64,000 nt of DNA from Escherichia coli (GCF_003334785.1 NZ_QOWV01000006.1), one strand, 5' to 3'; counted from the stretch's first letter, positions 44,101-47,100 are shown. Numbers: made by a program.

Positions 44101-47100
44101 GATCGACATAGTGTATGACATGCCTGCAACAAATTGTCCGTACTGTGCCAGCCACTGGCTAACCAGATAAAACGTTGCCATTGAGATATAGCCATATAAG
44201 GTATAACTGGCTAAATCGATAATTGAACAGCGATGTTCCGTAGAGCTGGTGGTTTTCTTTATGACAGGTAAGCGACGACCCGGATGGGGTGGGAACGTAC
44301 AACGGTATAAAAACAGAGCGTTAATAAACATAATGCCTGCAGCAATCATAAAGGACCAACCGAACCACAGTTCAGCCCACACTAACAGGCTAATGATTAG
44401 CGGTAATAAAAATTGTCCGCTGGAAACAAATGCTTTAATTAAAATATTGGCTGTCCCAGGTGAGCGTGGAAAAGCTTCCATCAAACTGGGATAAGTGCCT
44501 GCATCGAGAAAACTGTTTGCCATTCCCGCCAGAAAGCCAAAAACATAAGCGATAATGATGTTATTGGTCTGCAGGATGCCAAAAAAGAAGGCCATATAGC
44601 AGCACATCCCGAGCATGATAAAAGGGCGGCGACCAAAGCGATCGGATAATAATCCTGCAAAAAGCAAGACACTTAATCGACCAATGCCCAGCGATGAGAT
44701 AACTATCGAGACACCCGCGGCATTAGTCTGCCAAAGTGTCTCCAGCGAGGCCATATTCAGGCTCATCAAAAGGACGCCCATACCATGCACCAGGTAATTA
44801 AAATACAACCCAAGTGCGGTAGGGAAATAGGGATTTTTCATAGGTTCTACTTAGCAAAGGTGCTTTAAAAAGTGAAGCGATGTTGTGTCAGCATCCGTTC
44901 ATTATTGTTGTAACAACGACAATTCCTTTCTGTGGAAAAATTAACAAAGCCGCTCCAGATCGTGTGCATATAATTCAGCAGCTACCGATTGATAGATCTT
45001 CCAGTCAATAAAATTGCCATCAGGGTAGACTCGTTGAAATGCGGTTAAGTCGGGGAAAAAACGCATGGTGTTGTTGCCGATGCGGTTATTTATTTTCTCT
45101 ATGATGGCATGAAGATGTTTTTTTCTTTGCTGACGCATAGCCAACAGTTGCTCGACTACACGATCAGGAATGGCACACTTGCCATTTTCCCACTGACGCC
45201 AGCTTTCACTGTCACCGGTCTGGGCAATCCAGGTCGCGCATTCATCAATAGTCATGGCAAAAATATGGCGGAGTGCCTGGAGTTCATAAGCGTTCATCGT
45301 GTAATGGCTGCATGAAATAAACAATAAAATATAAATAACATTATCAGCCTGCTGACGGCTTGAAGAGAGTCACAGTATCTTGTGCAACATTATTGGAAAG
45401 AGTGAGGGGCGAGGTAGCGAAGCGGAAAAATGTTAAAAAAAAGCCCATCGTGGGAGATGGGCAAAGACTACACACAGCAATTCGTTGTTTCACTCAGGGG
45501 ATTTCCATGCTTATAAATCAATATGTTGATTTATAACCGTGAGCTAATAGTAGGCATACGGACTTTTTGCGTCGATCAGATTCGTCTCATTAGTTTAAAA
45601 ACTGTAAAGAATTTGCGACAGGTACTACCAGCTGAATGGCGGTAAGCAGGAAAATATGGGGAAGAGCAAGCAAATATCAATTAGCGGTGGTTAACAATCA
45701 GGCGGCAGAGCCGCCTGATGAGAAATTACTTATTCGGTTTCTCGATTTCGCCAAGTTCTTCGAGAATTTCTTCCGGTTGGTCCGTCGGCGGCGGGACTTC
45801 TTCCACCCACGCGGCAAACAGACGCCAGGAAACGGCTAACAGAACCGGACCAATAAACAGACCGATCATCCCGAAAGCAATCAAACCACCAATAACGCCA
45901 GAGAGAATCAGGATCAGCGGTAAATCGGCACCCATGCGAATTAACATTGGGCGGATGACGTTATCCAGCGTGCCAACCACACCGCTCCACACTAACAATA
46001 CCGTTCCCCAGGTGGTATCGCCAGTCCAGTAGAGCCAGATAATCGCCGGAATCAGTACCGGCAACGGGCCAAGCTGGACAAGGCAGGAGAGGATCATTAA
46101 CACCGTTAGCAACGTTGCATAAGGTACGCCGGATACGGCGAGGCCGATACCGCCAAGCACTGCCTGTACTAACGCCGTCACCACCACACCCAGCGCCACC
46201 GCGCGGATAGCCTGTGCCGCCAGCAGCACGGCGGCATCTCCGCGAACGCCTGCCAGACGGGTTGCAAAATGGCGAATGCCTTGTGCCACCTGTTCACCGC
46301 GCCAGTACAGCAGGGCACTGAAGAGAAGCATCAGCGCACAATGCACCATAAAGCGCCCGATATGCGCCGCCTGCCCAACGAACCAGGTGGTGGTGGTGCC
46401 AATATAAGGGCGGACTTTCGCCATGATCGCCGTCCCCCCCATATCCAGCAAGTTGTGCCAGCCTGCATACAGCTTCGCGCCAATCACCGGAATGGTATTA
46501 AGCCACGCCAGATCGGGTAACGTCATGTCACCGCTGGAAATGGCTTTAATTAGCGGGCCGCTGCCGTCGACGATACTGTTAACCAGCAAAGCAATAGGGA
46601 TGATAAACACCATCACTAATAACAGCGTCATCACCAGAACGGCGAGAGAGCGGCGGCCAAACATGATCTTTTGCAAACGTAACAATACCGGCCAGGTGGC
46701 GATAACCACCGTACCGGCCCATGCAAAGCCGAGAATAAAGGGTTGAACAATCCACAGACATGCCACAATCATGATGGCTAAAAACAGCACCGAAAGCAGA
46801 ATTTGTGCGACATCCCTGGGCTGACGAACATTTACCATAACTACTTTTCACCTTTTTTGTGCGTCAAATCGTCGACGCGACGTGAACACGCGAAACTCAC
46901 CTGCATAATGATGAGCAATTTCAGCGGTTTTTAACAGGCCGATTCTGCCCTTAATTCTGATGGGCGTGTTAGAAAAAAATGTGGTACAACAACTCAGGCA
47001 ACACGCAAACGATTTACTCGTCGTATTTCAAGTTGCATGTGCTGCGGCTACGTTCGTTCACCCCAGTCACTTACTATTGTAAGCTCCTGGAGTTCACTCG

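Follow-up and report, generated by a model that had tools for sequence, protein, structure and literature searches.

Among the small RNAs that activate rpoS, DsrA responds to low temperature and ArcZ to ArcAB and aerobiosis. Both are Hfq-dependent and work through the same long rpoS leader as RprA (PMC3937726, PMC5861431), from which they differ in having unrelated sequences and in being encoded at other loci; an Rfam scan of the 64-kb stretch of Escherichia coli DNA analysed here (the window) found neither. RprA itself binds Hfq (PMC3708529), activates rpoS by an anti-antisense mechanism (PMC3465796, PMC6202311), uses nt 28-45, 60-97 and 45-75 in repressing csgD and ydaM (PMC3465796), and also represses hdeD (PMC5861431). 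The molecule has been described as containing three stem-loops and as being processed by RNase E into a shorter 3′ form, and its 5′ stem-loop has been proposed as the duplex-recognition element for that enzyme (PMC6202311); a fragment, RprA60-105, has also been mentioned (PMC3465796). As to its promoter, a fragment of Salmonella PrprA (-53 to -33) has been co-crystallised with an RcsB dimer (PMC7913699).

The minus strand of positions 45435-45540 reads ACGGTTATAAATCAACATATTGATTTATAAGCATGGAAATCCCCTGAGTGAAACAACGAATTGCTGTGTGTAGTCTTTGCCCATCTCCCACGATGGGCTTTTTTTT (the reverse complement of these positions), running from ACGGTTATAAATCAAC to GCCCATCTCCCACGATGGGCTTTTTTTT. Each of its 106 bases is identical to MG1655 rprA (NC_000913.3 1770372-1770477, b4431), and the identity to the K-12 reference continues through the flanks, for 2,401 of 2,401 bases. 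The Rfam model for RprA, RF00034, aligns from its first position to its last (1-108 of 108) with minus-strand 45433-45540, scoring 118.5 bits (E = 1.6e-16) where the gathering score is 70, and the RefSeq annotation of rprA has the same limits, 45433-45540. A conserved 21-mer of RprA, searched for with up to three mismatches permitted, occurs once in the window against an expectation of 0.00. The original prediction had placed RprA on the reverse complement of 45435-45540 and had named a covariance-model scan as its check: the full-length match above the gathering score, the complete identity to K-12 and the RefSeq annotation bear it out. The gene, on these three lines of evidence, is a 106-nt minus-strand sRNA gene whose 5′ end (+1) is 45540. 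It is the reference rprA gene itself, already known, and not a mere relative of RprA, a statement we make with virtual certainty; comparison with K-12 rprA (b4431, RF00034) revealed no difference in sequence, neighbours, promoter box, hairpins or terminator.

The neighbours are those named in the original prediction. Upstream lies ydiK (45726-46838, a 370-aa ORF annotated as the AI-2E family transporter YdiK) and downstream ydiL (44941-45297, a RefSeq CDS mapped to the window from positions 3104-3460 of locus L001); all three genes are on the minus strand. Of 5,426 complete E. coli genomes, 5,425 have an 801-nt region around rprA and 5,424 have the promoter and gene segment, the latter with at least 99% identity in 5,234 records. 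Elsewhere in the window, on the plus strand, Rfam matches were obtained to the rydB sRNA (RF00118; full length, 51144-51204, 81.6 bits against a gathering score of 50), to Phe_leader (RF01859; 16636-16760, 75 bits against 55), an attenuator leader of the phenylalanine type whose 3′ end forms a terminator hairpin, and to STnc540 (RF02082; 20601-20759, 67.4 bits against 38), the last with large internal deletions relative to the model.

The promoter, with positions counted from the annotated 5′ end at 45540, comprises three minus-strand elements. The -10 hexamer TACTAT (45547-45552; -12 to -7) was recognised by its position and conservation; 17 bp upstream of it is the -35 region TCGACG (45570-45575; -35 to -30), within which GAC is invariant; and adjoining this is an RcsB box, TGAGACGAATCTGA (45576-45589; -49 to -36), identified by conservation and by its likeness to Salmonella PrprA. 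Over the 23 bases around the box, 22 are identical to the Salmonella rprA promoter 23-mer, and the box-plus-GAC pattern TNNGANNANTCNNANNGAC finds its sole match in the window here, where 0.08 would be expected. This arrangement, a box abutting the -35 region, is that of a predicted RcsB-dependent promoter. The earlier attribution of RprA to Rcs control is supported by this anatomy, the box being the window's only one of its kind and differing at a single position from the crystallised Salmonella promoter.

Conservation of these elements was assessed in rprA loci collected with a conserved 23-mer bait, AATTGCTGTGTGTAGTCTTTGCC, taking one genome per species. At least 120 loci were recovered, from Enterobacteriaceae, Erwiniaceae, Pectobacteriaceae, Yersiniaceae, Hafniaceae and Morganellaceae. 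Among 55 aligned species the box columns T..GA..A.TC..A (T-49, G-46, A-45, A-42, T-40, C-39 and A-36) are invariant, GAC at -33 to -31 is 100% conserved, and so are T-12, A-11, A-8 and T-7 of the -10 element (TAnnAT); all of these invariant columns fall outside the bait. Among the matches listed, 106 of 116 Enterobacterales loci have the full RcsB-box motif, usually at a distance of 107-108 nt before the bait; most of the exceptions belong to Providencia and Moellerella. Because the promoter motif is kept across Enterobacterales loci, Rcs control of rprA looks ancestral to the order. The Providencia loci that depart from the canonical box-plus-GAC (L006, L041, L068, L073, L088 and L121) also have very different 5′ halves; among the upstream regions inspected, several contain a GAGTGTTCTTA-type sequence, which may represent a variant form of the box. 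In the Moellerella locus (L023) a box with the core motif, TGAGAAAAATCTTA, is retained and the adjoining GAC is absent.

The minimum-free-energy fold of RprA consists of a 5′ hairpin (nt 5-30), an open middle and a terminator, and as a whole is mildly better than the folds of shuffled sequences (z = -1.99). The 5′ stem-loop (RprA nt 3-32; 45509-45538, minus strand) has an 11-bp A/U-rich stem that appears in both the minimum-free-energy and the centroid fold. At the other end is a Rho-independent terminator (45435-45462, minus strand) made up of a hairpin (45443-45462) and a U8 tail (45435-45442). A terminal GC hairpin, CCCATCTCCCACGATGGG, with a U-tail formed part of the original prediction, and the terminator scan returned it as GCCCATCTCCCACGATGGGC at 45462-45443 (RprA nt 79-98; seven pairs, five of them G-C) followed by eight T. 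Terminator and U8 tail together are a typical Hfq-binding 3′ end.

Projection of the predicted pairs on the alignment of 55 species left 86.4% of cells paired, with double-sided changes in 11 of 19 pairs; none of 500 column shuffles reached the observed values, and sliding the partners by one to three columns reduced pairing to 28-47%, against 86%. The 5′ stem has changes on both sides in 9 of 12 pairs, while the terminator is paired in 99.7% of cells and includes two covarying pairs. The 5′ hairpin and the terminator are accordingly predicted structures that covariation supports. Between them is a highly conserved single-stranded 3′ region, AAUUGCUGUGUGUAGUCUUUGCC (RprA nt 59-81; 45460-45482, minus strand), found as an exact 23-mer in at least 120 species-level Enterobacterales genomes. 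Because these positions served as the search bait, their invariance is not evidence; UCCCCUG, which lies outside the bait, is 87-98% conserved. The region overlaps the published pairing regions for csgD (nt 60-97) and ydaM (nt 45-75) (PMC3465796).

The segment implicated in rpoS pairing (RprA nt 40-62, UCCCCU ... AACGAAUU; 45479-45501, minus strand) was located by exact complementary blocks in the rpoS leader, for which we used 630 nt of the K-12 reference. RprA nt 55-62 (AACGAAUU) is the exact Watson-Crick complement of rpoS -117 to -110, and nt 40-45 (UCCCCU) that of -106 to -101. Both blocks, which run collinear and antiparallel, fall on the inhibitory arm of the leader, whose own fold pairs -124 to -94 with -18 to +11, a stretch that includes the Shine-Dalgarno sequence and the start codon. 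The best duplex between the RprA linker and the leader, at -135 to -96, covers the known arm. Energies are less discriminating: 118 of 500 dinucleotide shuffles did as well as full-length RprA against the 630-nt leader, by a method that permits huge loops, and 44 of 200 shuffles equalled the energy of the linker (nt 31-77) against 40-nt leader windows, which is not significant. Complementary blocks of 6-8 nt to RprA also occur elsewhere in the leader. The computed complementarity is consistent with the published pairing and does not establish it; since shuffles match the duplex energy and similar blocks recur in the leader, the pairing site rests on published genetics.

The mechanism that best explains the locus combines published work with the present analysis. 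Induction by Rcs, the need for Hfq, the activation of rpoS, the remaining targets and the processing come from the literature; gene identity, promoter anatomy, conserved structure and complementarity were shown here. Envelope stress would activate the Rcs phosphorelay, and an RcsB dimer bound to the box at -49 to -36, abutting a weak -35, would switch the promoter on. Transcription would start at 45540 and end at the hairpin and U8 terminator, giving a trans-acting, Hfq-dependent sRNA of 105-106 nt. Its unstructured middle (UCCCCU and AACGAAUU) would pair with the upstream arm of the rpoS 5′ leader; this arm would otherwise be paired to the ribosome-binding site, so that RprA would free the site and allow more RpoS to be made – the anti-antisense mechanism. 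Pairing of the conserved 3′ region close to the start sites of csgD, ydaM (dgcM) and hdeD would repress these genes, and RNase E cleavage would yield the shorter 3′ form.

A finding that goes beyond the original prediction came from checking stray BLAST hits. Mobile elements carry the part of RprA from about nt 59 onwards (its 3′ half, with the seed AAUUGCUGUGUGUAGUCUUUGCC, the hairpin and the U-tail) and none of the remainder of the gene. The module corresponds to window positions 45435-45482, and copies were examined at loci L125 (2501-2548), L126 (3001-3046), L127 (2501-2544), L128 (3001-3056) and L129-L254. In P1-like phage-plasmids from E. coli, Enterobacter and other hosts its neighbours are a PmgS-like gene on one side and tRNA genes on the other, with lpa and pacA close by; in the temperate E. 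coli phage vB_EcoM-606R2 it is found between a SieB-like gene, the flank of which matches the annotated sieB promoter of P22, and early recombination genes; and in virulent N4-like Erwinia phages, Ea9-2 and relatives, it occupies the 49-nt gap that follows thymidylate synthase. In temperate, lambdoid-type phages of three distinct classes the module shares the strand of a CI-type repressor gene and stands downstream of it, in the early operon.

A scan of viral contigs with a 21-mer of the RprA seed returned at least 120 loci, seed identity among these hits being so by construction. Among the matches listed, a hairpin of at least 5 bp followed by a T-run is present in 121 of 121 module copies, and an RcsB box or 5′ hallmark motif in none of the 121. 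The copies are diverse, with at least 43 different hairpin sequences and at least 44 different upstream 15-mers, and one of them (L215) combines the same seed with an unrelated terminator. For complete E. coli genomes the count is 6,041 places in 5,425 records, which leaves about 616 extra copies, with up to three in one genome. Second seed copies without an RcsB box were also seen at L064 (872-894) and L065 (1235-1257), both from one contig of Phytobacter massiliensis, and at L105 and L112; L105 is probably a prophage copy, because its upstream sequence is shared with one viral class.

How should these modules be classified? Their Rfam scores (41.8-63.4 bits) are under the gathering score of 70, which is why annotation pipelines leave them unannotated. 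Because they are under that threshold and are without both the RcsB box and the 5′ hairpin, the modules stand outside the RprA family: judged on sequence, they are relatives of part of RprA, of a seed-plus-terminator type, and not family members. A literature search by name and by seed sequence found no description of phage-borne RprA modules, which is not proof of absence.

What the modules do can be suggested with some reserve. Seed and terminator may constitute a mobile sRNA module by which phages imitate processed RprA and so tap the host RprA regulon, a proposal to which we give slightly less than even credence. The same credence, held jointly with that proposal, extends to what the tapped regulon would comprise: curli and biofilm, c-di-GMP, acid resistance and conjugation control. 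The alternative is that phage copies reflect the neutral capture of a good terminator, and this also occurs. In the virulent, N4-like Salmonella phage FSL SP-076 (L249, 1501-1531) there is a terminator of the RprA type, TTTGCCCATCTCCCTTGATGGGCTTTTTTTTT, with no RprA seed ahead of it, so that plain terminator capture does happen. A seed-blind scan of one phage class found intact seeds in 14 of 14 copies, a figure that does not isolate selection on the seed because the hairpin is nearly invariant too.

Phages may have a further connection with this gene, in that some may use rprA as an attachment site; Phage_Finder lists RprA among ncRNA integration targets (PMC12540744). For the module of vB_EcoM-606R2, a reading as attP was considered and rejected: 49 E. 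coli chromosomes contain the surrounding 601 nt without interruption and at 100% identity, and these places are mostly near 1.3-1.4 Mb, with rprA mostly near 2.1-2.3 Mb. No integrase was found near this module. P1-like plasmids and N4-like phages, for their part, are not known to integrate. Full-length rprA was also encountered on several Klebsiella 'plasmids' of 110-144 kb, for example K. pneumoniae pCMC432M_P3 (L255, 3001-3106). The block around it – a ydiJ-like gene, ydiK, rprA and ppsA – is chromosomal-looking and may have been captured from a chromosome or have arisen as an artefact of assembly; the notion that this is rprA travelling as a mobile sRNA was rejected on account of that block.

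Two other readings concern the chromosomal locus itself. The first, that the element is the 3′ UTR and terminator of ydiK or a leader of ydiL and not an independent gene, draws on the fact that rprA is on the same strand as both, 186 nt past the ydiK stop and 137 nt ahead of the ydiL start. We regard it as extremely improbable. The element has its own strong terminator and its own conserved promoter, with RcsB box, GAC and TAnnAT -10 at fixed distances in the great body of loci (106 of 116). In Klebsiella, where ydiK is upstream as in E. coli, rprA is kept although its downstream neighbour is ppsA, in the opposite orientation, and not ydiL. An IS1 separates the rprA terminator from ydiL in several E. 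coli strains (H1-H4) and leaves rprA intact (in E. coli CRE1493, L004 955-1652, at about window 45300-45430). A separate hairpin follows the ydiK stop codon: the G+C-rich inverted repeat CAGGCGGCTCTGCCGCCTG (window approximately 45690-45720, minus strand), ahead of the rprA promoter. This repeat probably serves as the terminator of ydiK, even though the terminator scan did not call it and a clear T-run is absent.

The second, that a short ORF overlapping rprA encodes a small protein and that the product is not an RNA, can be dismissed as having next to no probability: the ORF track is empty here, as the original prediction had observed, with no mechanical ORF of at least 60 aa overlapping the gene and just three shorter ones (45344-45493 minus, 49 aa, GTG; 45360-45536 plus, 58 aa, TTG; 45523-45645 plus, 40 aa), two of which have non-ATG starts, and none of the records compared has a CDS annotated on these bases. 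The 49-aa ORF begins within the sRNA and crosses the terminator into sequence that is unconserved between species. Conservation between species stops at the T-run, and between families the 5′ half has undergone indels of various sizes (1, 2, 4 bases and larger) with base pairing kept; both facts argue against a coding function, the latter pointing to selection at the level of RNA and not of protein. The locus is thus best regarded as rprA, and all the checkable parts of the original interpretation are supported.

DicF of the Qin prophage offers a comparison for the phage modules: it is a short sRNA with its own terminator, encoded in an early operon beside the immunity region of a lambdoid prophage, and the modules, as putative sRNAs, have a similar make-up and position. 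The two differ in their seed. The locus in the window is a textbook sRNA, recognisable from raw sequence with exact ends, and RprA couples Rcs and envelope stress to RpoS, the general stress response, as well as to the control of biofilms, connections that are all established. If the modules are expressed, phages would be copying, on a wide scale, the working part of a core host sRNA.
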